Source: Candidatus Poribacteria bacterium
Lineage (GTDB): Bacteria > Poribacteria > WGA-4E > JAJDTR01
DNA: 64,000 nucleotides
Assembly: GCA_965222225.1 (NCBI GenBank)
Contig: CBDCTK010000002.1
Coordinates: 2,080,001-2,144,000, forward strand
Direction of reading: 5' to 3'
Part shown: one piece after another, positions 19,607 to 32,877 of the stretch
How the letters are laid out: the number at the start of each line of letters is the position of its first letter
Numbering within the stretch: the stretch's first letter is position 1
Notes under the pieces: generated by a model
Database searches by the model: none
What the model was told of the DNA's origin: nothing
What the model saw: only the letters and a program-made list of their open reading frames with translations
Made by a program: the position numbers and the translations under genes

Positions 19607-21592
19607 CTATTCCAGTTTATTTTGCTGAGCATCCCATATTCGAATTGCGTTGGTTCCACCCGGATCGGCCCCGCTCCCACTTATTAGGTTGAGTCCGTCG
19701 GGAGTAAATGCCAGGGCACTGACCGGATTGTCCCATTCATAGTCGAGCAAGAGTCCACCTGTTTCCACATTCCACAACCGAATTGTTTTGTTGGCGTAAA
19801 CGCCGAAACTATAATTGGCATTTGCGCTTCCGGTTGCTAAGGTATGCCCATCAGGGGAAAAAGCGACAGAGTTGACCACAGTCGAATGTTCAAGCGTCTG
19901 CCGATTTTCGCCGCTTCGGACATCCCATAACTTAGCCGTTTTGTCCGCGCTACCGCTCGCCATCGTGAGCCCATCCGCAGCCAACGCAACCGACGTAATA
20001 TCTTCCGCATGTCCTTGCAGGGCGTGGAGACTTTCTCCAGTCAAAGCATTCCACACTCTGACTGTCTTGTCCGAACTACCGCTCGCAAGTATTGACCCGT
20101 CCGGAGCGAACGCTACAGAAGTGACGATGTCTGTATGCCCCTTCAAGGTACGCAGATGGCTGCCTGTGCGTACATCCCACAATCGAACTGTCTTGTCCCC
20201 ACTCGCACTCGCAAGCAGCGGCGCGGCCGAAGAATAGGCAATGGAAGTGACGGCACCTGTATGCCCTGTTAGAGTCCTAAGTAGTTTCCCAGAATCGACG
20301 TCCCACAGTAGAACGGCCTTACCAACTCGCATTACATCATCCATTTCACCAACCAGTAAAGGAATGGTCCCGTCACTCCCCCAAAAGAGTCCGGCGCCGC
20401 TAGCCAATGTAAATCCGTCTGGAGAGAACGCTACGCAGCCGAACGCTCGGGCTTCCGAATTACGGAATCCAAAGGGCATAATAATGCGTCGCCCATTTTC
20501 GGGATTTATCACATCAATTAGGGATCCCATGCTTCCTATAGCAAGTTTCAGACCATCGCGAGAGAGCGCAACCGAAGTGACTGGGCGCCCCCGGGGGAAC
20601 GTCAATCGGGGACGCCTAATGCGCGTGTCCCATAGAAGTATCGTATTGGGCCAACTCCCGCTGGCAATCGTAAGTCCATCGGGAGAGAACGCAATCGAAT
20701 TGACGTCATTCTCATGTCCCTTGAGGGTCTGAAGGTGTCGCAGAGTGTGAGCATCCCACAATCGAACCTCCCACGGATGTCCGCTAGCCAGTGTAGCTCC
20801 ATCGGGGGAGAACGCTAGTGAAGTGACCTTGGGGTGATTCATCTCCGAGTTCCGCAAACTTTTTCCAGAATTAGCGTCCCAGAACCGGATAGTACGGTCG
20901 CCACCCCCACTAACGAGCATCGAGCCATCAGGCGAGAAGGCCAAGCCATAGACCGAATATGTATGCCCTTCAAGCCAATGCAATAGTTCCCCCGTTCGAA
21001 CATCCCACAGCCCTATCTTCATATCTTCGGCCATGCTGCCAGAGGCAAGTATGCTTCCATCAGGGGAAAACGCCACGGTATAGACCCAACTCGTGTGTCC
21101 GTTTAAGGTTTGCTTGTGCGCTCCTGTGTGAGAATCCCACAATCGGATTGTAGTGTCACCACTCCCACTAGCGAGCATCAATCCATCAGGCGAGAAGACA
21201 ACCGACATTACCTCCTCGGTGTGTCCAGAAAGGGTCTGTAGACTCTGTCCGGTGCGGGAGTCCCACAGTCGAACTGTGTTGTCTCCACTTCCACTACCCA
21301 CGGTGAAGCCATCGGGAGAGAATGCCACCGACGTTACATTCTCGGTGTGTCCCGTGAGTAGCGCGACTTCGGCACCGCTCTTTACATCATAAATCCAAAT
21401 GTGGAGTCCCCTAGCCACTGTAAGCTTAGTCCCGTCCGGTGAATAGGCGAGGTCATGCATCAACCCACCGCCAAGTTTGGCTTTCGCACCCTCGGGCACC
21501 TCCGATCGGTGCAAATACTGGGTATAGCTATCGTATGGAAGCAGAGCAGAAAGAAACAAAAAGCCGAAGATGGCAGAATGAATTCTTTTCAT
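19607..21592 (-). CDS. Secreted WD40-repeat protein
   Basis: Signal peptide; ~13 repeats of the GH...V.SVAFSPDG..LASGS.D.T.RLWD type. Confidence 0.93.
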   Translation of the reverse strand: MKRIHSAIFGFLFLSALLPYDSYTQYLHRSEVPEGAKAKLGGGLMHDLAYSPDGTKLTVARGLHIWIYDVKSGAEVALLTGHTENVTSVAFSPDGFTVGSGSGDNTVRLWDSRTGQSLQTLSGHTEEVMSVVFSPDGLMLASGSGDTTIRLWDSHTGAHKQTLNGHTSWVYTVAFSPDGSILASGSMAEDMKIGLWDVRTGELLHWLEGHTYSVYGLAFSPDGSMLVSGGGDRTIRFWDANSGKSLRNSEMNHPKVTSLAFSPDGATLASGHPWEVRLWDAHTLRHLQTLKGHENDVNSIAFSPDGLTIASGSWPNTILLWDTRIRRPRLTFPRGRPVTSVALSRDGLKLAIGSMGSLIDVINPENGRRIIMPFGFRNSEARAFGCVAFSPDGFTLASGAGLFWGSDGTIPLLVGEMDDVMRVGKAVLLWDVDSGKLLRTLTGHTGAVTSIAYSSAAPLLASASGDKTVRLWDVRTGSHLRTLKGHTDIVTSVAFAPDGSILASGSSDKTVRVWNALTGESLHALQGHAEDITSVALAADGLTMASGSADKTAKLWDVRSGENRQTLEHSTVVNSVAFSPDGHTLATGSANANYSFGVYANKTIRLWNVETGGLLLDYEWDNPVSALAFTPDGLNLISGSGADPGGTNAIRIWDAQQNKLE

Positions 21593-21809
21593 TCGTGATT
21601 CTCCTTGACGAGGTTATTCCAGTAAAAATATCCGATTTGCATAGTTGACAATCTACCTTTTAATCAAGGCACATTTCGCACTAGGAACGAGAAATTTTCC
21701 GCGCCATCAATTGTACTTTACTATATTTTTGATGTGCACAGTTGGTTTACACTTGTAGTAGAATTTGTAGTTTTCGGTCCAACAAAATACCTAGATTCCA
21801 TGTGACTAT

Positions 21810-22922
21810 TTAAGTTGTATGGCTAAGGTATGGTATGTTCACAAACTTCAAGCACACAGGGGCTGGTACCTCAGTTATCTGTCCTGTTGGATTAAGATCT
21901 CCCGTCTCTTCGTTGATTCGGAAGCTAACAATTGTGTTGCTAGCCTGATTGGCAGCAAGTAGGTACGTTCCGGATGGGACAATCCCAAAATTCCGAGGCG
22001 TTTCTCCTTGAGTTGGCTCATGGCCTACGGCGCTGAGTTTACCTGTAACCTCGTCAATTTCAAAAATGGCAATGCTGTCGTGGCCTCGGTTGGAACCATA
22101 GAGGAATTTACCAGACGGGTGGACGTGCACATCGGCGGTATAGCTAGTGTCGGAGAAATTTTCGGGAAGGGTCGAAATCGTTTGAATTTCATGCAGCGCA
22201 CCGCTAGCTTCGTCATAAGCGAATCCGGTAATGGTAGAGTCAAGTTCATTGATGACATAGGCATGTCCTCGGTTGGGATGAAAATCGAAGTGGCGTGGTC
22301 CTGCTCCGGCCTTAACCGGGGCACACGGCGGGTCATTGGGAATCAACTTCCCCTCGGTAAGGTCAAGTCGATAACTCATGATTTTATCAAGCCCCAGATC
22401 CGGCGCAAAGGCATAACAATTAGTCGGGTCAGTTATAATCGAATGAGCGTGTGGTGCTTCCTGTCGTTGGGGATTGACACTAGAGCCGTTGTGCTGAACG
22501 AAGTCGGATGCTTCACCGAGCCCTCCATCGTCCTGTATCGGAAGCACGCACACACTGCCGCCCCCATAATTTGCTACGAGTACAAATTTGCCGGTATTGT
22601 CAACTGTGAGATGACACGGACCTGTTCCGACCGAGGACTCTCGATTCAAAAACGTCAATGCGCCGCTTGTTTGGTCAATGGCAAACGAACTTACGCTCCC
22701 GCTCGGTTTACCTCCAAACTCGCTAATCTCGTTGACAGCGTAAAGATATCGCTGTTGAGGATGGATAGCCAAGAAAGAAGGATTTTCCCCTGCTTCCGTG
22801 GTACTAGAAAGTTCCAAAGCGCCAGTGATTGGATTCACGCGATAGACGTAAATGCCTTCACTCTCGCCTGTGGTATAGGTACCGACATAAAGGCAAAGTG
22901 TCTCGCCGTGATTCTCGGACAT
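21810..22922 (-). CDS. pgl: 6-phosphogluconolactonase (lactonase beta-propeller family)
   Basis: YVGTYT, VANYGGG, PHAH, GAGPRH, YGSNRGHDSIA. Confidence 0.88.
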   Translation of the reverse strand: MSENHGETLCLYVGTYTTGESEGIYVYRVNPITGALELSSTTEAGENPSFLAIHPQQRYLYAVNEISEFGGKPSGSVSSFAIDQTSGALTFLNRESSVGTGPCHLTVDNTGKFVLVANYGGGSVCVLPIQDDGGLGEASDFVQHNGSSVNPQRQEAPHAHSIITDPTNCYAFAPDLGLDKIMSYRLDLTEGKLIPNDPPCAPVKAGAGPRHFDFHPNRGHAYVINELDSTITGFAYDEASGALHEIQTISTLPENFSDTSYTADVHVHPSGKFLYGSNRGHDSIAIFEIDEVTGKLSAVGHEPTQGETPRNFGIVPSGTYLLAANQASNTIVSFRINEETGDLNPTGQITEVPAPVCLKFVNIPYLSHTT

Positions 22923-23155
22923 GGTAAGTTGTCCCCTCGCTTTTAGGATGGTGACTCCACGAACAAAGTGGCAAATTTGAAGTCTATCAAAGTGCTAAAC
23001 CTACGTCAATGAAAATGCCAGCCAACAAACGGCGATTGATGAAAAAAACAGGGACTTCACAAAAGATGGGAAGGGATGGGTGTGTAGTGCACAATGGCAA
23101 GAGGTTACCGAACCATGCAAAGGCGGAAAAGAAAGCTAACAGTCATGAATTACCG

Positions 23156-24841
23156 CTACTGCAATATGTGCACGCGGTTCTTTCCACGCACGGTTTCATC
23201 GGGCATGACAATCGGCATTTCTACTACGGCTATAAGCCTTCCGTCAGCACTTATGTCTACCGTATCGTAAGGAAGTTGCCCCTCCGTACGAAAGGTGTAA
23301 AGGTATTTGTCAAGACCGCCACCTTTTTCCTGCAGATTGAAGACAGAGACACCGTGTAACTGCTGAACACTGGTTCGGTTATATTTCGATTGACTGACAA
23401 CAGCATATTTTCCTGCAGCATCAATTTGCAAAGCTTGAGGCATGTTGTCCAATTTCCACTGCCAAATCTTTTCGCCCATCCACGAATAGGCGAATAGTGT
23501 CATACCATTTGGATGCGCGGATGGCGGTTGTTGTGCTCCTTTCTTAAGATGATAAGGAATATAGGTGTCGCCGGTTACAAACAAGGCAAACTCGTTTGTG
23601 GCGCCAATGGTGCCCGTAGTTGCGGTAATGGGGACTTCGCTGACTTGAAGAGGTGTTGTGAGGTTGGCTTTCCAATGGTTGTCGGCATGGGTCGCATTAA
23701 AGATGAAAACTCTTCCATCGTCTGTCGATACATTTATCCACGATCCATCGGGCGAGATACCTACGCTGCGCCAGAACGTCACCGCCCCATAGTAGGGCTT
23801 CAGCGAGTCGAACGTGTAATTCCATCGGTCTGCCCCGGTTTCGCCGTCAATCACGTATAGCGTACCCGATTTGTATCGTGACGACCCTCCGATAACTCCT
23901 CCGTCGCAGACAAGTACAATAGTTCTTCCGTCTTGACTGTAGTCAAACCATTTGATATTCATTGGAATTGCTTGATCGCTAGGCCACTTCCATTTTATTT
24001 TACCGGTTGTGTTGTCGAAACGGTAGAACTGCGCCTTTTTCAAGCTCTTGCCATCCTTCGTCCACGAATGGTTCGCTGCTGCGAGGAGCTCGCCATCGTT
24101 AGTCACAGCCATTCGATAAGGTCCCGGATACTGCACCCACCCGTAAACATCATTCGGGTCGTCGGGATGGGAGGTATCAATGTCGTTCGCTGTCCTGTAG
24201 CTCCATAACAGTGCAGGCTTCTTGTCGGACAGCCTGTAAGCGTATATCAAGCCTTCGGCGGATTGTTCGCCTATGTAAAAGCGAGTGCCGTCAGGACTGA
24301 ATGTCGCGTGTTTCACATAACCTTCCGAAATTCGTGTGGTCCAGATATTTACTCCCGTTAGTGGGTTTACAATTGCCAGATGGCCGGTATCCGTTGCAAT
24401 AGCGAGTTGGCTGCCATCAGGAGAGAAGGCGACAGTGGATGGAACGGCAGGGCGTTTTAGATTTGCTAACAGTGAAAGCATCGAATCCAACTCAATCATA
24501 CGCACCCGATACACGCTTGGCTTGAGCGGTGAAATTTGGCGCCCTTCAAGATTCAAAGAATCAACACGAATTTGATAGGACGTAGCAGGTTGCCATGCAA
24601 ATTGAAGAAAAAGGCGGTCGCCGTCAATCGGTAGTACATTAACCGGGAGCATGCCCGCATCAGATTGGACTTGCGCCCGAATGCGCATCGTCAGATCGTG
24701 CTGGGCCTCAATGACGACCCCTTGTCTAGTGAAAGTAATGTCATCGTGTTGAATCTCCGCGCCGTAAGCAGCGCAGATTGAAACCATAATGCAGAATAAA
24801 TAGGCGAGAGATATCTTCAAACGTAGTTTCCCATTATTCAT
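23156..24841 (-). CDS. Secreted WD40/PQQ-like beta-propeller protein, probable third gene of the B12-regulated cluster
   Basis: Signal peptide; repeated FSPDG/WxW blades; GGAGG RBS before ATG 24841. Confidence 0.75.
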   Translation of the reverse strand: MNNGKLRLKISLAYLFCIMVSICAAYGAEIQHDDITFTRQGVVIEAQHDLTMRIRAQVQSDAGMLPVNVLPIDGDRLFLQFAWQPATSYQIRVDSLNLEGRQISPLKPSVYRVRMIELDSMLSLLANLKRPAVPSTVAFSPDGSQLAIATDTGHLAIVNPLTGVNIWTTRISEGYVKHATFSPDGTRFYIGEQSAEGLIYAYRLSDKKPALLWSYRTANDIDTSHPDDPNDVYGWVQYPGPYRMAVTNDGELLAAANHSWTKDGKSLKKAQFYRFDNTTGKIKWKWPSDQAIPMNIKWFDYSQDGRTIVLVCDGGVIGGSSRYKSGTLYVIDGETGADRWNYTFDSLKPYYGAVTFWRSVGISPDGSWINVSTDDGRVFIFNATHADNHWKANLTTPLQVSEVPITATTGTIGATNEFALFVTGDTYIPYHLKKGAQQPPSAHPNGMTLFAYSWMGEKIWQWKLDNMPQALQIDAAGKYAVVSQSKYNRTSVQQLHGVSVFNLQEKGGGLDKYLYTFRTEGQLPYDTVDISADGRLIAVVEMPIVMPDETVRGKNRVHILQ

Positions 24842-25056
24842 ACAATGCCTCCATAAGCGTAGAAGTGATTTTGCCGGCGTAAGAATTGGGGACTTGATAA
24901 CCACGGCATTTTTAAAAATTCACGGGCAAAATGTGGATTTGACAATCTAATTCAAGCGGAAACAAACAGTGCACGTTATGCTTGGCAACTCAAAAGATTA
25001 GAAATGATTGTGCCGCAAAACATGGATAGACACCCAAATCTATCGCCGTTCACACA

Positions 25057-27048
25057 TCATTCTGACACGCGCCAAAGCCCCCATCCCAAACGCTTTCCCA
25101 AAAGCACGCCGACAAGAGTGTAGATAAACCCGTCGACCAAGCACCGGGAAATAATATACCATTCGGCATAAAAAAGGCGGTACAGTGTCATACTAATCTG
25201 GAAATCGACGTAAACGGCGATGGAGTCACACACGCCAAACACCAACGCAAGCGGTAACAGGTGACGGCCGTTTCGGACAATCTTAAAGCCTATTTCCAAG
25301 AGCAAGACGCTCACGCCCGTATACACCAGCGTTGTTGGATTGAATAATCCCAGTACCACACCGCCCAGCAACAGTCGAACGAGGGATACTAACGTTATAA
25401 CGCCCGGTTTGGGAATGAGCATTAACAACGCTGTCAACAGCGCGTAGTACAGCATTTCGTTGATCAGTCCCGTAACCAGAAATGAGGCGGGACCGAGCAA
25501 CGCGGGGATCAAGTTGGCGAGCAATGTCGACGGAATGCTAACGGCGATAAAGATGGTTGTGCCAAAAAGAGCGACCAAGATGAGTTGCTTCGTGGCGAAG
25601 CGAGAAAAGATAGATTGATGATAGCTGAAAAAAAGAACAAGCCCTATGATTGTGCCGGCGAATGCACATACCGTAACAACAAGGGCTTGCTGATTTGGAG
25701 TCCTGATGTGCAAGGGTCTCGTTGCACGAAGTACCGTTGTGTCGCTCCCCCAAACCTTTACCTCTATCTCCCGTTCATAGCTGCCTCTACCCTTAAATCC
25801 GCGCGATGCATCTTCTCGGGCTATTGATGGATTGAAGAAGATTGGTAAAGGCACATCCGTGGTGTTATGAGGGGCCAAACTTACAAAAGCAAAACTTCGG
25901 TTTGTGCCCGCGTTAAATTCGTCTGGCGGAACGAGGAAAGGAACGGGGCTTCCGTGCTTTGTGTCAAGGTTCACTGCCGAAACAAGTAGATGTACCGTAT
26001 TTTCGCCATTATTTCGAAGACGCACTGATTGGTACGTAATCGGCTGAAAATAGTTCGACTGTTCCGCTTTCACTCCCAACCACTTGCCAAGACGTCCAAA
26101 CGCGGGCTGCGGATAAGAAATTACATCCGGTTGTTGACGCGAATCCAAAATGCCAGCTTCGTCGGTCGGCATAAACACGTCCTCAATCGAGATTAGCGCG
26201 GCAATTTCATCACTCGTCGCTGATCGCAAAGAAACGGAAGTTTGCCGTTCCCAAGATTCTCCGTCGGCGGTTTTGAAGAGCACACTTCCGGAAATTCGTG
26301 ATGAATCGGGAAGCGGCTCCGCCGGGACATGTAACTCTACTTGCCGGTACCAGACCTCCGACTCAACCGTGAATCTCCCCGATGCGGATAATCGCCAATT
26401 CCCGCGTCCGTTACCATTATGTGCCGAATTGGACATCTCGACCACGTGTTTGGAACCGAATCCTTCTGGAACCTTCGCTACCTGAAGCGGATGAGGAATC
26501 TCGACATCTAATTCAAACCCAGCGGGTGCTCTCAAGCCATTTCGCACAAGCAAAGTCATTGTTATGTTGCTATCCTGAAGCACCAATGACTCGTCCGATG
26601 GGGTAACGGTGGAATCTGAATCGCCAAGGCTCTCCGTCGCAACGGTACCGTACGGAACAGCAATCTCAAGTGTGCCTTGTCGGTCTGACTGCGGGGCTCG
26701 CAGCGTCTTGGTTGAGGTTTCTCCCGATTCACCCTGAACCTCGAACCGGTATTCTATACCGTTCTTCCATCGAAAGTAGAGAGGCTCCGTAACGCGAGGG
26801 TAGCTGTCCAAACTGAGTTGAGCAACTACAAATTCATCCATGTCTGCTACGCTCCGGACGCGAATTTGTCGAATTTTTCTTCGATTGGTTGAGTCAAAGT
26901 GAACTTCGGCCCCGAGCGAGACAAATCTGACTTCCCAAGAAAGCGGCGCCTGCCCCCTTCCGCCTGAACAATTGGCGAATACGGTGACAAGAAAAACCAA
27001 CACAAAGGGATGAAACGCCAGTCGTAAATCACGAAGCATGGTGTGCAT
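25057..27048 (-). CDS. Large extracytoplasmic domain fused to a C-terminal ECF-type S-component-like membrane domain
   Basis: Possible lipobox (VFANC); ~430 aa soluble region; C-terminal multi-TM region with F.TKQLILVALF and LIPKPGVITL resembling MptD/EcsC-type S components. Confidence 0.65.
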   Translation of the reverse strand: MHTMLRDLRLAFHPFVLVFLVTVFANCSGGRGQAPLSWEVRFVSLGAEVHFDSTNRRKIRQIRVRSVADMDEFVVAQLSLDSYPRVTEPLYFRWKNGIEYRFEVQGESGETSTKTLRAPQSDRQGTLEIAVPYGTVATESLGDSDSTVTPSDESLVLQDSNITMTLLVRNGLRAPAGFELDVEIPHPLQVAKVPEGFGSKHVVEMSNSAHNGNGRGNWRLSASGRFTVESEVWYRQVELHVPAEPLPDSSRISGSVLFKTADGESWERQTSVSLRSATSDEIAALISIEDVFMPTDEAGILDSRQQPDVISYPQPAFGRLGKWLGVKAEQSNYFQPITYQSVRLRNNGENTVHLLVSAVNLDTKHGSPVPFLVPPDEFNAGTNRSFAFVSLAPHNTTDVPLPIFFNPSIAREDASRGFKGRGSYEREIEVKVWGSDTTVLRATRPLHIRTPNQQALVVTVCAFAGTIIGLVLFFSYHQSIFSRFATKQLILVALFGTTIFIAVSIPSTLLANLIPALLGPASFLVTGLINEMLYYALLTALLMLIPKPGVITLVSLVRLLLGGVVLGLFNPTTLVYTGVSVLLLEIGFKIVRNGRHLLPLALVFGVCDSIAVYVDFQISMTLYRLFYAEWYIISRCLVDGFIYTLVGVLLGKRLGWGLWRVSE

Positions 27049-27107
27049 TGATTTTAGGCTGTTGCCCCTGCGGAAACAGGGATGCGCCGGCGCCGCTTGG
27101 TAGAGGT

Positions 27108-28319
27108 TTAGTTATTGGATTTGAGTTTTCCCCAGCTCGTCGCTAGCTTGCCTTGCGGACTGACCGCTGTCAGGAGTGTCTCAACTTGGGCAAGCGCAAC
27201 TCCCGATGCACCGTGTCCCACGCGATAGGTTTCTAGCAACACCGCATTGGGCGAAACAACATACAACTCATCCATTCCACCGCCAGTCCAATCCGCTTTG
27301 GTGATATAAAGGTTGTCGTCTTGGTCAATCGCGCCGATACTACCCAAATCAGAGAACGGATTCTCCGGGCGATGTAGCCACTGGTTGCCCAGCAAGTCGT
27401 AAACGAGCAGTCCGCCAGAACTTATGAACAAGCGCTTCATACTATCAACTGCAGGGCTTCCGGCACTCTTTTCCAAGTCAATAGTATCTGCGATTTCATC
27501 AGTGACTGCGTCAATAATTACAACTGTCCCAGGTATGCCACCAGGAACAATCCAGTCGCCAACTCCTGCCGAAACCGCAATCACTTTGGATTCTCCGTCA
27601 TTTGTAATGCCAGAGGTATTAATCGGCATGGGAATGGTTTTCAAAACTGTGTCGTTGGCGGTGTCAATCACTGTGACGCTGCTATTGTCATCATAACTGA
27701 CATTCCAAGTGCCTTCTTCCTTCACATATGCGGAGTTCGCCACGTAAGCCTTGCCATTGAGCACTGTAATTCCGTCAGGCGCTTGGCCGGCGGGAATGCG
27801 TTTGATGACTCGATATCGGTTCAAATCCAGAACATCAACTTTGTCGCTATATAGCCCGGTAACATACGCTTTGGAAGACTCTACCAACGCGATTTGTTTC
27901 GGTGTTGTGTCTGAATCAATAGAGATTTTCCCTACGGTAGAGCGGGTCTGTAAGTCAATAACTTCGACATATCCCCCGCGCGGATCAAAAAACGGGTCTC
28001 GTATTTGGTTGACCACATATAACACATTTTCTTGGGCAATCAGATCGCTGGGTACTATGTCACCGAAAGGGATTTCCTCCTTCGCGACAGCTCGGGCCGC
28101 GTCAGGTTCGTCAAGATTGACGATTGACAGTGACGGGGAGATACCGACCTCAGGTTTGCTCAAGCCGTTAACAACGATTGCCAGATTGTTAATCTGATTC
28201 TGTGCGGTAACGGCATTTGGAATCAGGAAGAGTGCTGAAACGAAAACTGCGAATACTTTAACCCAATCAAGATGCCCCCTAGCGGAGCGGCGAAACGCGT
28301 TAAAACAGTGTGATAACAT
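27108..28319 (-). CDS. Secreted YncE-type beta-propeller (BtuG-like candidate cobalamin-binding protein) with C-terminal WGxLK motif
   Basis: KAYV/VTVIDT blades; first gene after the cobalamin riboswitch; ends AVSPQGKLATSWGKLK. Confidence 0.75.
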   Translation of the reverse strand: MLSHCFNAFRRSARGHLDWVKVFAVFVSALFLIPNAVTAQNQINNLAIVVNGLSKPEVGISPSLSIVNLDEPDAARAVAKEEIPFGDIVPSDLIAQENVLYVVNQIRDPFFDPRGGYVEVIDLQTRSTVGKISIDSDTTPKQIALVESSKAYVTGLYSDKVDVLDLNRYRVIKRIPAGQAPDGITVLNGKAYVANSAYVKEEGTWNVSYDDNSSVTVIDTANDTVLKTIPMPINTSGITNDGESKVIAVSAGVGDWIVPGGIPGTVVIIDAVTDEIADTIDLEKSAGSPAVDSMKRLFISSGGLLVYDLLGNQWLHRPENPFSDLGSIGAIDQDDNLYITKADWTGGGMDELYVVSPNAVLLETYRVGHGASGVALAQVETLLTAVSPQGKLATSWGKLKSNN

Positions 28320-28362
28320 CGATGAATCCTTTCGTCCATCTGGGACAATGTGCTATTGCAAC

Positions 28363-28396
28363 AAAAAACCCCAGCCTCCACAAGGGAAACTGGGGT
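28363..28396 (-). terminator. Intrinsic terminator forming the riboswitch expression platform
   Basis: ACCCCAGTTTCC-CTTGT-GGAGGCTGGGGT followed by T-run, between aptamer and start codon. Confidence 0.75.
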
Positions 28397-28519
28397 ACAG
28401 TTCTCTATTCATCCAATGCGCACATTGCGCGGCGTGCGGAGATTTTCTACCGCACTGTCCAGATAAGACGAAACCGATTTCTGTCTCACAGCCTTCCCGC
28501 GAAAGCCGATGCGTGAAAC

Positions 28520-28696
28520 GAATTCAGGAAGGTCTCCTGACTCACGACAACTCGTCGCCTGCCTTCCCATCCAACTGAATCTGGACAGTGGCGCTCTCGG
28601 GACGATATTCCGTCGCTTACAGTGGCGGGGCCATGGCGGATTTTCACCGCGCTTCCCTATTCTCCGACAACGTGGTAGTTGTCGGCCCCTGAATCC
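28520..28696 (-). ncRNA. Cobalamin (AdoCbl) riboswitch
   Basis: Minus strand AATAGGGAA..GGTGAAAATCC..GCCCCGCCACTGTAA..GCCACTG..GGGAAGG..GAGTCAGGAGACC (B12 box). Confidence 0.95.
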
Positions 28697-28718
28697 GAAA
28701 CTATTCAAATGTAGGCGG

Positions 28719-28747
28719 ATTCTAACACATGGATATAGGCATGTCAA
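28719..28747 (-). promoter_or_regulatory. sigma70 promoter of the riboswitch operon
   Basis: TTGACA-17nt-TAGAAT about 20 nt upstream of the aptamer. Confidence 0.75.
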
Positions 28748-29115
28748 CTAAAAATTCGCACGCGCCGCAAGGAAACCGTATCTGATTGTAGGAAATCAAG
28801 CAAGTGGATATTGAGCGACAATCATCAAAACACCAATCTTCAATCTTTTCCTATCTCAAGATTTATAGCAGACTAATGACTTGAATTTCCTAGAGCGCTA
28901 GAAGTGATTGCCTTGCGTGCGCGGCGCTATCGGCGGGATCTCTTATGTGCGCACCCGCCGTTGATTTAAGCTGTCCACCCCGACAAATCTCGCAGTATTA
29001 GGTGGAATTGTTAATGCAAACGTGGTAGAATAATCAATAATTGGATATGCCGAAGTGTAGTCGTAGACAGGCTATTGGCTGGTAGGACAATTGACTTTCT
29101 TCCAGTTTTTCATCA

Positions 29116-29421
29116 GTGAAAGGACAAGACAAAATCGTGTTGACCTACAAAGCAATGTATAAATATCTTGATGAAGGGATTCATGCCGAAGTTTTGGACT
29201 TTCCGGGGGTCATCACCTCGGCAACTAATCTCGAAGAAGCCCGGCGATTGCTGGCAAGTGCATTGACGGACATGGCAGAAACCAATCTACTTCTCGGTGA
29301 ACCCCTTCCACAACCAGACACGACAGTTACCGATTTAGATGCAGATTTGGAAGAGCCAATCTACTTGATACTCAATGCAACTAATCAGGTCCTTCAGATT
29401 CCCCAAGAGAGCAATGCATGA
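29116..29421 (+). CDS. hicB: HicB-family antitoxin
   Basis: LDFPGVITSATNLEEARRLL...LLLGEPLP; overlaps hicA (ATGA). Confidence 0.85.
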   Translation: MKGQDKIVLTYKAMYKYLDEGIHAEVLDFPGVITSATNLEEARRLLASALTDMAETNLLLGEPLPQPDTTVTDLDADLEEPIYLILNATNQVLQIPQESNA

Positions 29422-29606
29422 AGCGGCGCGAACTCTTGAAACATCTACGACAGCATGGTTGCCAACTAGTACGAGAGGGCGCCGCGCATTCGATATGGGA
29501 AAATGCAGCCAAGACCCGACGTTCTGCCATACCCCGCCACCGAGAAATACCTGATTACACTGCTCAGCGTATCTGCAAACAACTTGATATTTCCATCGCA
29601 AGTTAG
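29418..29606 (+). CDS. hicA: HicA-family mRNA interferase toxin
   Basis: MKRRELLKHL...REGAAHSIW...IPRHREI. Confidence 0.9.
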   Translation: MKRRELLKHLRQHGCQLVREGAAHSIWENAAKTRRSAIPRHREIPDYTAQRICKQLDISIAS

Positions 29607-29856
29607 TCTTTGTCTAGAGGTGATGGATGATTCACCAGCGTTAAGAAAACGAGTTTCCTTTGCTACGGAATAGCTCGACTATCTAGTGCAAGAACGATGT
29701 ATCACTTCGCAGAATCCTGTCAGTCATCGCCGGGTTCTAGCGTGTGATGATTTACCGCTTTGATTGTAGTTAAGTGTCTGGCAGCACAAAGTGACGGGAA
29801 TTCACTGAAGCGCTCTATTCACGTTTTCGATTCTTATATCTAAGGAGGACTTACGA

Positions 29857-30615
29857 ATGAGCACACCCGTAAGAGTAGCGATTATAACTGGAGGGGGAAG
29901 CGGAATTGGCAAGCGAACCGCTTTTGCGCTCCTGGCAGAGGGATATTCTGTTGCCATTGCCGGACGCCGCGTAGAACGTTTGCAGGAGACCGTCACGGAA
30001 GCTGGCGATGCTGGCTCGCGCATGTTGGCTGTGCCTACCGATGTAACTGATCCTGCCGCCATCCGAAATCTATTCGCAAAAACAGTCGAGGCATTTGGAC
30101 GATTGGATCTGCTCTTCAATAACGCTGGGGTGGGTGCACCAGGGGTTCCGATGGAAGAACTCACCTTGGAACAGTGGCAAACAGTCGTGGACACGAACCT
30201 GACCGCCTCCTTTCTGTGTACACAGGAAGCGATACAAATCATGAAGAATCAAAATCCGCGGGGTGGACGCATCATCAATAACGGTTCCGTATCAGCCCAT
30301 GTGCCCAGACCAAATTCGGCGCCGTATACCGCTACGAAGCATGCGCTAACGGGGCTTACCCGGTCAACCTCCCTTGATGGACGGAATTGCGATATACTGT
30401 GCGGCCAAATCGACATCGGTAACGCCTCGACCGACATGACGGCGCGATCTGACGGCGGCAGTCTCCAACCTCACGGCGCCTACATGGTCGAACCGAGAAT
30501 GGATGCGGATAACGTTGCTCGCGCTGTAGTGTACATGGCGAATCTCCCGCTAGATACGAATGTCCCTTTCATCACGGTTATGGCGAACGGGATGCCGTAT
30601 ATCGGGCGCGGCTAG
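29857..30615 (+). CDS. Short-chain dehydrogenase/reductase
   Basis: [24 protein letters not shown]. Confidence 0.92.
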
Positions 30616-31509: not shown

Positions 31510-32592
31510 TTAACAGTCATATCTCGGATGGGCATACTGGAGCAATGAAGTTTGCCCTTGAATGTGAAGGACTCGAACCTGCATGATTATACCGTTGTTA
31601 TCCTCAAGTTCAAAAGGATCGCCGACTTTAAAAGTGGCAGGTTGGTTCTTGCCGCCGTCAATGGCAATGTTGTCCGCGTAAATATAAGTTCGATTGCTTG
31701 TATCTAGAATAGGGTTTAGCCGCCCCTCCAATCCAGGGATATAGCCTGTCCCCATACAGATTACAGAACCCGTATTTTCACTTGAAGCCAAAGCAATTTT
31801 GATGTCTTCCACAGAGTCCCAAGCATTGATAACTACCCCAGGAAAGTCGGGATGGGCAATCAAGATTTGGTATTGGCGTCTTGTCGCGATGATAAGACGT
31901 GCAACACCTTCCTCATCCGTATTCGCTGACTTCGTTGTAGCATTGTCCGCTATGGCTACCACAGTAGCCTTGGAAATTGGACATTCGTCAGTGGAATAGA
32001 CTGAGATGAGAGACATCTCGGGATCAACACGAGGCATTGTGGTTGTTGAAAAGAGGGACCTTCTAACAAACTCGGGAGAGACCGTACGGTCACTGTGGCT
32101 ACGATTGCCAGCTGTCTGGTTCTGCTCAATAGCATCGGAAATACTCATTTCCTGCTTCGACCTGTTTTGGTCTTGACTCCTGGCTTTTGAGGTAGAGGCT
32201 ACGCCCATTGCACGCAATAGCTTTGAATATCCATCGTCGAAATTCTCTCGCGATGTGAAATCCGCGTAGAATTTATCAGCCAAAGCTTCAGGCAAGTTAC
32301 ATTTATCGACAAGAATAGGTAGTACAGCCACTATTGACCCCGCGATTTCTTTGGACATTGCTAGGCTAATCTCTTTCTGTACCCAGCTAGACTCAATAGA
32401 ATTCTTCGAGATTATTACAGCAACATACTCCATATTCTTTATGCCGCCAGAGATTTCTTCAATCAGCGAGTCCCCGACATTTAACTCATCTTCGTCAAAC
32501 CAGACCAGCACGTCATCTGATGTGAGTCGCGCGGCTAAATCCCGTACAAACGGCTTATCTGTTGAATGGTGGCATAAAAACACAGATGGCAT
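31510..32592 (-). CDS. TIR-domain protein with unrecognised C-terminal domain
   Basis: VFLCHHSTDK, VWFDE, GDSL, SSWVQKEI (catalytic Glu), LPIL, YADF. Confidence 0.88.
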   Translation of the reverse strand: MPSVFLCHHSTDKPFVRDLAARLTSDDVLVWFDEDELNVGDSLIEEISGGIKNMEYVAVIISKNSIESSWVQKEISLAMSKEIAGSIVAVLPILVDKCNLPEALADKFYADFTSRENFDDGYSKLLRAMGVASTSKARSQDQNRSKQEMSISDAIEQNQTAGNRSHSDRTVSPEFVRRSLFSTTTMPRVDPEMSLISVYSTDECPISKATVVAIADNATTKSANTDEEGVARLIIATRRQYQILIAHPDFPGVVINAWDSVEDIKIALASSENTGSVICMGTGYIPGLEGRLNPILDTSNRTYIYADNIAIDGGKNQPATFKVGDPFELEDNNGIIMQVRVLHIQGQTSLLQYAHPRYDC

Positions 32593-32877
32593 CTCATCCT
32601 CCATTTCTCTCTACAACAAAGCATCAAACGCCTGCAATTGAGTAGAGCTAGATTTCCGCGTTCCCAGCAGTGTTTTGGTCATCTTTTCAACGCGCATAGA
32701 CAACCTTCTCATCAAGAACCGTCAACGCTTCCTGCTCCAACTCATAGGCTTCGGTCTTTTTTTGATTGGCCTCTAGAACTTTGCTGTTTATCACCCGCTA
32801 GGTATTTTCATCTCGCAATAAAGGCACTGCAACTTCCGAAATCGGTTGAAATAAATCTGGACGCTCGTGAACTGAAC

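Follow-up and report, generated by a model that had tools for sequence, protein, structure and literature searches.

What could three exported proteins encoded behind a cobalamin riboswitch do for the cell, in a region where no partner for transport is found? The question is raised by a locus in a 64-kb stretch of DNA, called the window below (contig C2, positions 2080001-2144000), which is part of the 5.7-Mb genome of a Candidatus Poribacteria bacterium, a sponge symbiont (completeness 94.87%, contamination 1.04%). The answer developed here is that the operon probably encodes the B12-repressed capture half of a split cobamide importer of the kind known as energy-coupling factor (ECF) transporters, working with periplasmic helpers. 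Positions refer to the window unless a contig or another locus is named.

The minus strand carries a promoter, a cobalamin riboswitch, a terminator hairpin and three co-oriented open reading frames (ORFs) with N-terminal signal sequences, all of them where a first-pass annotation of the DNA had placed them:

28719..28747, minus strand: sigma-70-type promoter (TTGACA, 17 nt, TAGAAT, with a TG extension; 11 of 12 matches)
28510..28707, minus strand: cobalamin riboswitch aptamer (Rfam RF00174)
28358..28396, minus strand: predicted intrinsic terminator, the expression platform (12-bp stem and T-run, 49 nt before the start of gene 1)
27108..28319, minus strand: gene 1, secreted beta-propeller of the YVTN/YncE type, BtuG-like by profile comparison, 403 residues
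25057..27048, minus strand: gene 2, membrane protein with a putative ECF S-component domain (predicted structure, synteny, co-occurrence), 663 residues
23156..24841, minus strand: gene 3, secreted PQQ_2/BamB/WD40-like beta-propeller by profile comparison, 561 residues from the ATG at 24841

The same annotation had noticed that neither btuB/btuFCD nor genes for ECF T or A components lie nearby, and indeed no match to Peripla_BP_2, FecCD, CbiQ or Plug was found in the window. The matches to Peripla_BP_2 (C2:2712439) and CbiQ (C2:4185589) both lie outside C2:2080001-2144000, as do those to FecCD (C2:5213038 and C2:5214630) and all 13 matches to Plug.

Control region and expression of the operon

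The riboswitch was verified by an Rfam scan, which matched RF00174 at 28707..28510 over the full model (positions 1-189 of 189) with E 8.2e-27 and a score of 110.5 bits, the gathering score being 31.5. No other match in the window exceeds the gathering score, and no other was reported for the genome, where 150 of 256 first-look candidates were scored. The promoter at 28747..28719 is the best of nine promoter-like sites in 21500-29900, a scan that is not significant by itself (a mean of 10.1 sites in shuffled sequence against the nine found). The terminator hairpin sits 114 nt after the aptamer and consists of a 12-bp GC-rich stem (28396..28368) followed by the tail TTTTTTGTTGC. It is present in the minimum-energy fold of the leader (z -5.44), and a hairpin of -10 kcal/mol or lower directly before a T-run is found in 23 of 24 related leaders, with stems that vary by compensatory changes; the single leader lacking it contains N letters. 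Ligand-dependent switching is expected from the known behavior of RF00174, and the locus is taken to be under B12-riboswitch control.

Relatives of gene 2 with 41-86% identity were found in 28 loci from metagenome-assembled genomes of Poribacteria. The order gene 1-gene 2-gene 3 is kept in 26 of these loci, the exceptions being L008, with no gene 3 in the stretch fetched, and L026, with no gene 1, and a leader homologous to that of the window lies directly 5' of the gene-1 homologue in 25. Some sister operons have received insertions: an IS4/5 DDE transposase in L025 (L025:4657-5370), an IS605 OrfB/TnpB-like gene with a Cas12f-like TNB domain in L016 (L016:10216-11379), and unrelated metabolic genes in L007 and L024.

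Twelve RNA runs contain part of the stretch, and the contigs examined were those of four metatranscriptome runs, which belong to two studies. They cover most of 22600-28675, and in all four runs the depth is zero in 28676-28892, just 5' of the promoter, and returns beyond. This gap speaks against DNA carry-over and is consistent with transcription starting near the predicted promoter. One contig (27556-28627) connects the aptamer, across the terminator, with part of gene 1, and the junction between gene 1 and gene 2 is bridged by the contigs 26721-27441 and 25017-27137. The summed contig depth in the four runs is 124-199 in the leader (28459-28675) and about 0-60 in bins over the three genes. 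This excess would fit premature termination but was not used as a sign of it, as the depth values are per-contig figures and the conserved aptamer gathers contigs from related strains (with loose ends at 28617 and 28670).

The S-component-like domain of gene 2 and its probable distant motor

No family of Pfam or NCBIfam matches gene 2, and what it encodes was approached through its predicted structure. The AlphaFold2 model, built on 62 family members (pLDDT 88.7, pTM 0.80), contains three beta-sandwich domains (residues 38-130, 154-277 and 286-449) followed by seven membrane helices (residues 453-662), which comprise one extra helix and a six-helix domain assigned below to the S-components (residues ~483-663, window 25057-25600). 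No cytoplasmic signalling domain is seen. The N-terminus is a hydrophobic helix ending in the lipobox-like FANC. Lipobox-like N-termini occur in 23 of the 62 family members and many others start with a hydrophobic stretch, a possible signal or anchor; because such N-termini recur across the family, the three-domain arm should lie outside the cytoplasm.

A Foldseek search with the full-length model returned only generic arrays of immunoglobulin-like (Ig-like) and MG domains (TM ≤0.16), and the membrane domain was therefore folded alone (pLDDT 87.6) and aligned by VIA with 48,161 representative chains. The first 15 entries, with Z from 15.1 to 8.7, are all ECF S-components and all cover model residues 43-223, and the next row has Z 6.9. 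The list is headed by 5edl (Z 15.1, root-mean-square deviation 2.6 over 170 aligned residues), which we take to be YkoE of the Bacillus subtilis YkoEDC thiamine-precursor transporter, followed by TmRibU (12.9), FolT (12.2), RibU (11.7), HmpT (11.6) and NikM (10.6); ThiT, BioY, PanT, CbiM and BtuM (8.7) are further members of the 15. Helical bundles can reach a Z of about 14 through fold alone, and the assignment is made because the top of the list holds S-components only, over the same residues. In Foldseek the sole near-significant match of the membrane domain is again 5edl (E 2.1e-3, TM 0.60/0.67). The C-terminus of gene 2 is thus modeled with an ECF S-component fold, in line with its first description as an S-like fusion. 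The sole echo at the sequence level is that of PF09819 (ABC_cobalt), which matches 8 of 39 family members at E ≤10 (best E 3e-4) and also appears, with a score of 0.84, among the Atlas leads for gene 2, the others being unnamed clusters and all scoring below 0.9.

The genome has exactly one match to CbiQ/EcfT, which overlaps the end of a 562-residue fused double ATPase (EcfAA'). The two genes lie on the minus strand at C2 ~4185394-4192067 (L031:7395-14068), about 2.04 Mb from the window and directly 3' of two paralogous 660-residue radical S-adenosylmethionine (SAM) genes with B12-binding and DUF4070 domains. Among 8 other Poribacteria genomes, drawn from several families, 7 share the order radical-SAM gene, EcfAA', EcfT, and only EcfT was detected in L119. 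Upstream of the radical-SAM/motor cluster lies a gene for an ECF-type (extracytoplasmic function) sigma factor. Both the ATPase and the T component of this motor are ~30-43% identical over their full length to the motors that stand next to gene-2 homologues in distant loci.

Gene 2 belongs to a large family. An exhaustive HMMER search assembled 412 representative clusters (50% identity) at E ≤1e-3, of which 123 reach E ≤1e-30. The conserved core spans residues ~220-663, the source names encountered are all "hypothetical protein", and no Pfam match was found in 15 distant members. The named taxa are Poribacteria, Planctomycetota, Nitrospirota, Candidatus Oleimmundimicrobium and the Negativicutes genera Selenobaculum and Anaerosinus. 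A metagenome scan gave 80 loci, 69 of them of non-Poribacteria type, in which the recurrent operon consists of a TonB-dependent receptor, the gene-2 homologue, a fused double ABC ATPase of ~560 residues, a CbiQ/EcfT of ~295 residues and a gene-3-type propeller. Neighbors were labeled from 96 proteins of 19 loci by Pfam and the labels extended by phmmer; the counts below are for the 39 non-Poribacteria-type loci with at least 3.5 kb downstream, or for all 69:

Fused double ABC ATPase starting at most 400 nt from the stop of the homologue: 32/39
CbiQ/EcfT: 35/39
Gene-3-type PQQ_2 propeller: 31/39
TonB-dependent receptor: 24/39
CobN: 16/39, and 20/69 across all
ChlI/ChlD: 13/69
BtuF-like binding protein: 5/69
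CbiZ: 3/69
BtuR/CobO: 2/69
CbiK: 1/69

An RF00174 riboswitch stands upstream on the same strand in 5 of the 35 distant loci scanned (L063, L067, L080, L087 and L108). A regular expression for the B12 box flagged L066, L077 and L078, of which L066 and L078 were rejected, as Rfam did not confirm them. In L038:3536-7116 and L045:6011-9659, gene-2 homologues (31-36% identity, nearly full length) form a subgroup with no fused ATPase/EcfT pair; 5' of them lie a Thiamine_BP gene, a single ABC ATPase and a protein of 234-235 residues with no clear Pfam match, of which the L038 copy has a weak match to cytochrome c3 below the cut-off. The family may include members with another substrate or motor type.

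The connection between gene 2 and the distant motor was followed through 61 genomes of the phylum, with a profile of the gene-2 transmembrane domain and with CbiQ. The membrane profile matches 55 of the 61, with one copy each, and these are exactly the genomes of the order to which the window belongs. CbiQ is present in all 55, with one match in 54 and two in the remaining one. Three genomes of the same class from outside the order have neither gene 2 nor CbiQ, and three more distant genomes of the phylum have no gene 2 and two or three CbiQ matches. As these genomes are related and do not count as independent of one another, this co-occurrence is a pattern and not a statistic. Other S-component families were looked for within the order: PF12822, PF02632 and PF01891 are absent from 31 genomes and PF07155 from 16, and the weak PF09819 matches were to gene 2 itself only (in a control search B. 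subtilis was matched by PF09819). In a genome-wide screen, 63 candidate ORFs for small polytopic membrane proteins came up. Since the single motor is homologous to those of the distant operons and occurs one-to-one with gene 2, gene 2 is most simply read as partnering the only EcfAA'-EcfT motor of the genome, the two forming a split ECF transporter.

The propellers and the apparent need for cobamides

Gene 1 has a signal peptide without a lipobox cysteine and contains a TIGR02276 repeat (NCBIfam), and its leads in the Atlas look-up, all below score 0.9, are YncE/DUF5074/lactonase clusters. Profile comparison confirms the YVTN/YncE-like propeller that had been proposed for it and adds a similarity to BtuG. 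The single sequence matches BtuG chains in the PDB at E 3e-4 to 0.1 only. With a profile of 18 homologues searched against solved chains, the top match is an archaeal YVTN S-layer protein, matched at the level of repeats in four stretches (E 5.4e-18), and the next 6 matches, and 13 of the 18 listed at E ≤0.1, are BtuG-type chains, each aligned over one stretch of ~190-235 residues with overall E from 1.7e-12 to ~8e-8. These include 8ptf and 8ptd (1.7e-12), 8blw_B (8.7e-12), 8puj, 8p97_B and 8okv_B (~5e-9), and 8bai, 8baz, 3dsm, 8bmy, 8bmx and 8bn0 (5e-8 to 8e-8), and E. coli YncE is matched only at E 0.048. Part of a published account (PMC10404256) lists 8BLW, 8BMX, 8BMY, 8OKV, 8P97 and 8P98 as BtuG-containing structures and 3DSM as apo-BtuG2; the identity of the matched chains as BtuG rests on those PDB codes, the remaining matched codes not being among them.

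The similarity to the Bacteroides BtuB-BtuG system therefore lies in the profile matches to BtuG1, BtuG2 and BtuG3 chains (E 8.7e-12 to 7.6e-8), in the B12-riboswitch regulation of the locus and in the presumed role, the capture of scarce cobamide. Unlike BtuG, gene 1 has no lipobox cysteine and no neighboring BtuB-type receptor. Its homologues are confined to the Poribacteria-type loci (33/39), where gene 1 takes the first operon position, held elsewhere by the TonB-dependent receptor; no TonB-dependent or BtuB-type receptor was found in any of the 39 Poribacteria-type loci. Some sister copies carry a dockerin instead of a lipid anchor. In four loci (L021, L024, L025 and L029) the gene-1 homologues, of 425-432 residues, end in dockerin-like repeats and are followed by a protein of ~505-599 residues with a cohesin domain, a FlgD-Ig domain and a C-terminal sorting tail of the type IX secretion system:

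L021:5689-7488, cohesin/sorting-tail gene
L024:1139-2650, cohesin/sorting-tail gene
L025:2848-4377, cohesin/sorting-tail gene
L029:6343-7860, cohesin/sorting-tail gene

This arrangement suggests a cohesin-dockerin pair that would hold the BtuG-like propeller on the cell surface in these sister lineages. Gene 1 of the window has no dockerin and most likely captures cobamide outside the cell or in the periplasm.

Gene 3, described earlier as a second propeller, does show PQQ_2/WD40-like matches. The ORF list started it at a GTG (24904); the likely true start is the ATG at 24841, as judged from its ribosome-binding site (GGAGG) and from the signal peptide that begins there. A small N-terminal beta domain of gene 3 weakly resembles the first domain of gene 2, and the gene-2 profile matches gene-3 homologues at E ~1e-6. 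Homologues of gene 3 share an operon with gene-2 homologues in 38 of the 69 non-Poribacteria-type loci. Together with the arm of gene 2, gene 3 most likely receives the corrinoid and hands it over, as BtuF does for BtuCD.

The alternative that survives best concerns these two proteins. It holds that the propellers bind no corrinoid and that one or both are scaffolds bridging the layers of the envelope, or enzymes remodelling the substrate, and it leaves the binding of the ligand to the Ig-domain arm or to the S-domain alone. Generic WD40/PQQ/BamB propellers, typically scaffolds, are all that the gene-3 profile matches, and gene 1 scores 22.5 bits with DUF5074 in Pfam, below the cut-off of 27.2, with its strongest PDB match at the level of S-layer repeats. 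These points speak for the alternative and against gene 1 as a BtuG-type binder. Yet the BtuG-type chains that follow the S-layer protein in the list are aligned over a single long stretch, and the retention of gene-3 homologues in the operon across phyla points to a role specific to this transporter. On balance, propellers without corrinoids seem unlikely.

What the transporter carries was judged from the needs of the bacterium. CobS, CobN, CobA/BtuR and CbiB were not found in the genome as assembled (94.87% complete). A PduO-type corrinoid adenosyltransferase is present, and so are four proteins with B12-binding domains, three radical-SAM enzymes and one corrinoid protein (B12-binding and B12-binding_2), the latter adjoining a RACo-type activator and a gene similar to methylenetetrahydrofolate reductase (C2:383536-387838; L032:5536-9838). 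From its sequence this cluster looks like one for corrinoid-dependent methyl transfer. The canonical importer seems incomplete, with one orphan BtuF-like protein that has no adjoining FecCD and two weak FecCD matches elsewhere. The bacterium thus appears, from its gene content, to be a cobamide auxotroph that needs complete cobamides. Uptake of cobamides is the preferred reading because an auxotroph with such a need keeps its sole detected B12 riboswitch before these three genes.

A transporter of cobalt, of another metal or of a metal-free or incomplete tetrapyrrole, tuned by the riboswitch to supply corrin synthesis as with CbiMNQO, is improbable. It would agree with the name of PF09819, "ABC-type cobalt transport system", the only Pfam family touching the transmembrane domain and an Atlas lead as well, and the neighbors of the family in other phyla (CobN, the ChlI/ChlD chelatase genes, CbiK and CbiZ) fit the import of a precursor followed by metalation or remodelling. 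However, the PF09819 match stays below the family cut-off, gene 1 resembles the cobamide binder BtuG, and with CobN, CbiB, CobS and BtuR not found neither cobalt nor an incomplete corrinoid could become a cofactor here. The need for cobamides without their synthesis, together with the sole detected riboswitch, speaks against a transport of cobalt or a precursor in the Poribacteria lineage.

That gene 2 manages without an ECF motor in Poribacteria, acting alone as proposed for BtuM or serving as an anchor or sensor for the propellers, is very improbable: none of the 39 Poribacteria-type loci has an A or T gene, gene 2 of the window has AxxxT and not AxxxA in helix 1, and part of PMC11109136 describes the S-component fold in non-transport proteins too, but gene 2 and the single EcfT are paired one-to-one in 55 of 55 genomes of the order and both missing in the three nearest outgroup genomes, the motor is homologous to those sharing operons with the gene-2 family elsewhere, no other S-component family that could use it was found in the genomes of the order that were searched, and a signalling domain on the cytoplasmic side is lacking.

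Proposed route and comparison with known importers

The split cobamide importer would work as follows. When cobamide is plentiful, the riboswitch would bind its ligand, the conserved terminator would form and transcription would stop in the leader. When cobamide is scarce, read-through would lead to the synthesis of the three exported proteins. The BtuG-like propeller of gene 1 would capture cobamide outside the cell or in the periplasm, and the propeller of gene 3, together with the gene-2 arm, would receive the corrinoid and pass it on, a task similar to that of BtuF. Gene 2 would be the substrate-carrying S-component, its ~420-440-residue and probably lipid-anchored arm of three Ig-like domains projecting into the periplasm, and its six-helix domain in the inner membrane is expected from fold, synteny and co-occurrence to dock on the sole EcfAA'-EcfT motor.

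Several observations weigh against this route. Neither single-sequence nor profile searches of gene 2 against PDB sequences returned anything meaningful, no sequence match to any solved S-component was found, and the reach of helical bundles in VIA noted above applies to its structural scores. Other structures are nearer than those of the known B12 S-components (BtuM has Z 8.7, CbrT Z 6.4 at rank 19), and PF09819 scores 17.6 bits with the gene-2 domain (E 0.0045) against a cut-off of 25.2. According to part of PMC11109136, an AxxxA motif in helix 1 of S-components docks on EcfT. At this position gene 2 has a small-xxx-small motif, A493-L-F-G-T497 (AxxxT) in the window and [A 29/S 10]-L-F-[G/A]-[A 20/T 17/S 2] among 39 family sequences, which is not a strict AxxxA. 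The motor is not behind a riboswitch, and RF00174 was not found in 30 of the 35 distant loci within the stretch fetched. The subgroup beside a Thiamine_BP (PF01910) gene, in L038 and L045, indicates that the family may carry more than one substrate. With ~5% of the genome unassembled, genes counted as not found may be located in that part. The operon includes no outer-membrane receptor. Finally, no RNA contig among those listed for the four runs bridges the 215-nt spacer between gene 2 and gene 3, where stretches without RNA cover, such as 24908-24970, are uninformative either way; contigs cannot prove a single transcript, and their depth cannot rank the genes.

With these points set against the evidence, the proposal of the first-pass annotation, an undescribed uptake module, holds for its riboswitch control, the S-component fold, the BtuG-like gene 1 and the links to corrinoids across phyla. 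It does not hold as a free-standing module, as the sole EcfAA' and EcfT lie ~2 Mb away and occur together with gene 2, one to one, throughout the order.

The routes by which B12 is known to cross the inner membrane are BtuCD-F, ECF-CbrT, BtuM and the BacA-type exporter-fold proteins. ECF transporters are usually described as needing no extracytoplasmic binding protein, and their best-studied examples are from Gram-positive bacteria. Within this set the system resembles the ECF vitamin importers and, in its substrate, ECF-CbrT, yet it is not a member of the CbrT family at the sequence level.

ECF-CbrT of Lactobacillus delbrueckii (PDB 6FNP) is likewise an ECF-type importer composed of an S-component and EcfA, A' and T. 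In PMC5997447, BtuCD-F and ECF-CbrT are both given for B12, and ECF-CbrT is described as a cobalamin/cobinamide transporter linked to B12-dependent enzymes and serving a B12 auxotroph. It therefore shares with the Poribacteria system an S-component gene apart from the motor, the link to B12-dependent enzymes and the B12-auxotrophic host (PMC5997447). Unlike CbrT, gene 2 has a periplasmic arm (~420-440 residues) and an extra transmembrane helix, and the system has fused motor ATPases and a dedicated propeller. No chain of 6FNP was matched by the family profiles at E ≤10, and the structural Z is as low as stated above (6.4, rank 19). The gene-2 family is hosted by diderm lineages, where the operon often includes a TonB-dependent receptor.

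The closest structure is that of the group-I S-component 5EDL, to which the weak PF09819 matches and the subgroup beside Thiamine_BP add further likeness. Identity is only 15-20%, with Pfam and PDB sequence searches below threshold, and unlike 5EDL gene 2 has the periplasmic arm and a genomic context that is related to B12 and not to thiamine.

The type II ABC importer BtuCD-BtuF has the same presumed job in the inner membrane of a diderm and also a periplasmic hand-off partner, but the folds are unrelated, and of this importer the genome has only the orphan BtuF-like protein and the two weak FecCD matches elsewhere. BtuM binds B12 as a solitary S-component-like protein (PMC6072759) and is similar to gene 2 in fold (8ovv, Z 8.7) and in presumed substrate. 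It is a small protein of a single domain and works without an ECF module, whereas gene 2 co-occurs with a cognate motor.

A search of the literature, mostly at the level of abstracts and with supplements excluded, found no published account that combines a large-arm S-component, a dedicated cross-phylum propeller and an ECF motor behind TonB-dependent receptors in diderms. There is about an even chance that diderms (Poribacteria, Nitrospirota, Planctomycetota, Negativicutes and abundant human-gut lineages) share an undescribed corrinoid route across two membranes, in which an ECF transporter with a lipid-anchored Ig arm and a dedicated propeller replace BtuF-BtuCD. Poribacteria would have a split version of it, with the riboswitch on the capture parts only and a BtuG-like propeller, surface-tethered by dockerin and cohesin in some lineages, in the absence of an operon-encoded BtuB. 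What is new here is the split Poribacteria form with the riboswitch on the capture parts only, the motor behind B12-dependent radical-SAM genes, the BtuG-like first gene and the one-to-one phyletic pattern. If the importer works as proposed, the gene-2 family would add a B12 import route with built-in periplasmic capture and would explain by what means sponge symbionts auxotrophic for B12 compete for cobamides, and likewise members of the human gut community. The set of parts, three proteins and a two-gene motor, is directly testable.

Two more propeller genes lie directly 3' of gene 3 on the minus strand (19607-22922). The first encodes a 370-residue, seven-bladed protein of the lactonase family (PF10282, E 7e-126) and has its own promoter-like site (23009..22981), and the second encodes a 661-residue protein with many WD40 repeats. 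Of the 8 closest relatives, 7 (L002-L007 and L009) also have the lactonase gene behind gene 3, and none was found in L008. On the other side of the operon, at 31510-32604 on the minus strand, lies the gene of a 364-residue protein with an N-terminal TIR domain (TIR_2, E 7.5e-27) and a weak match to ThsB_TIR, which may be related to defence.

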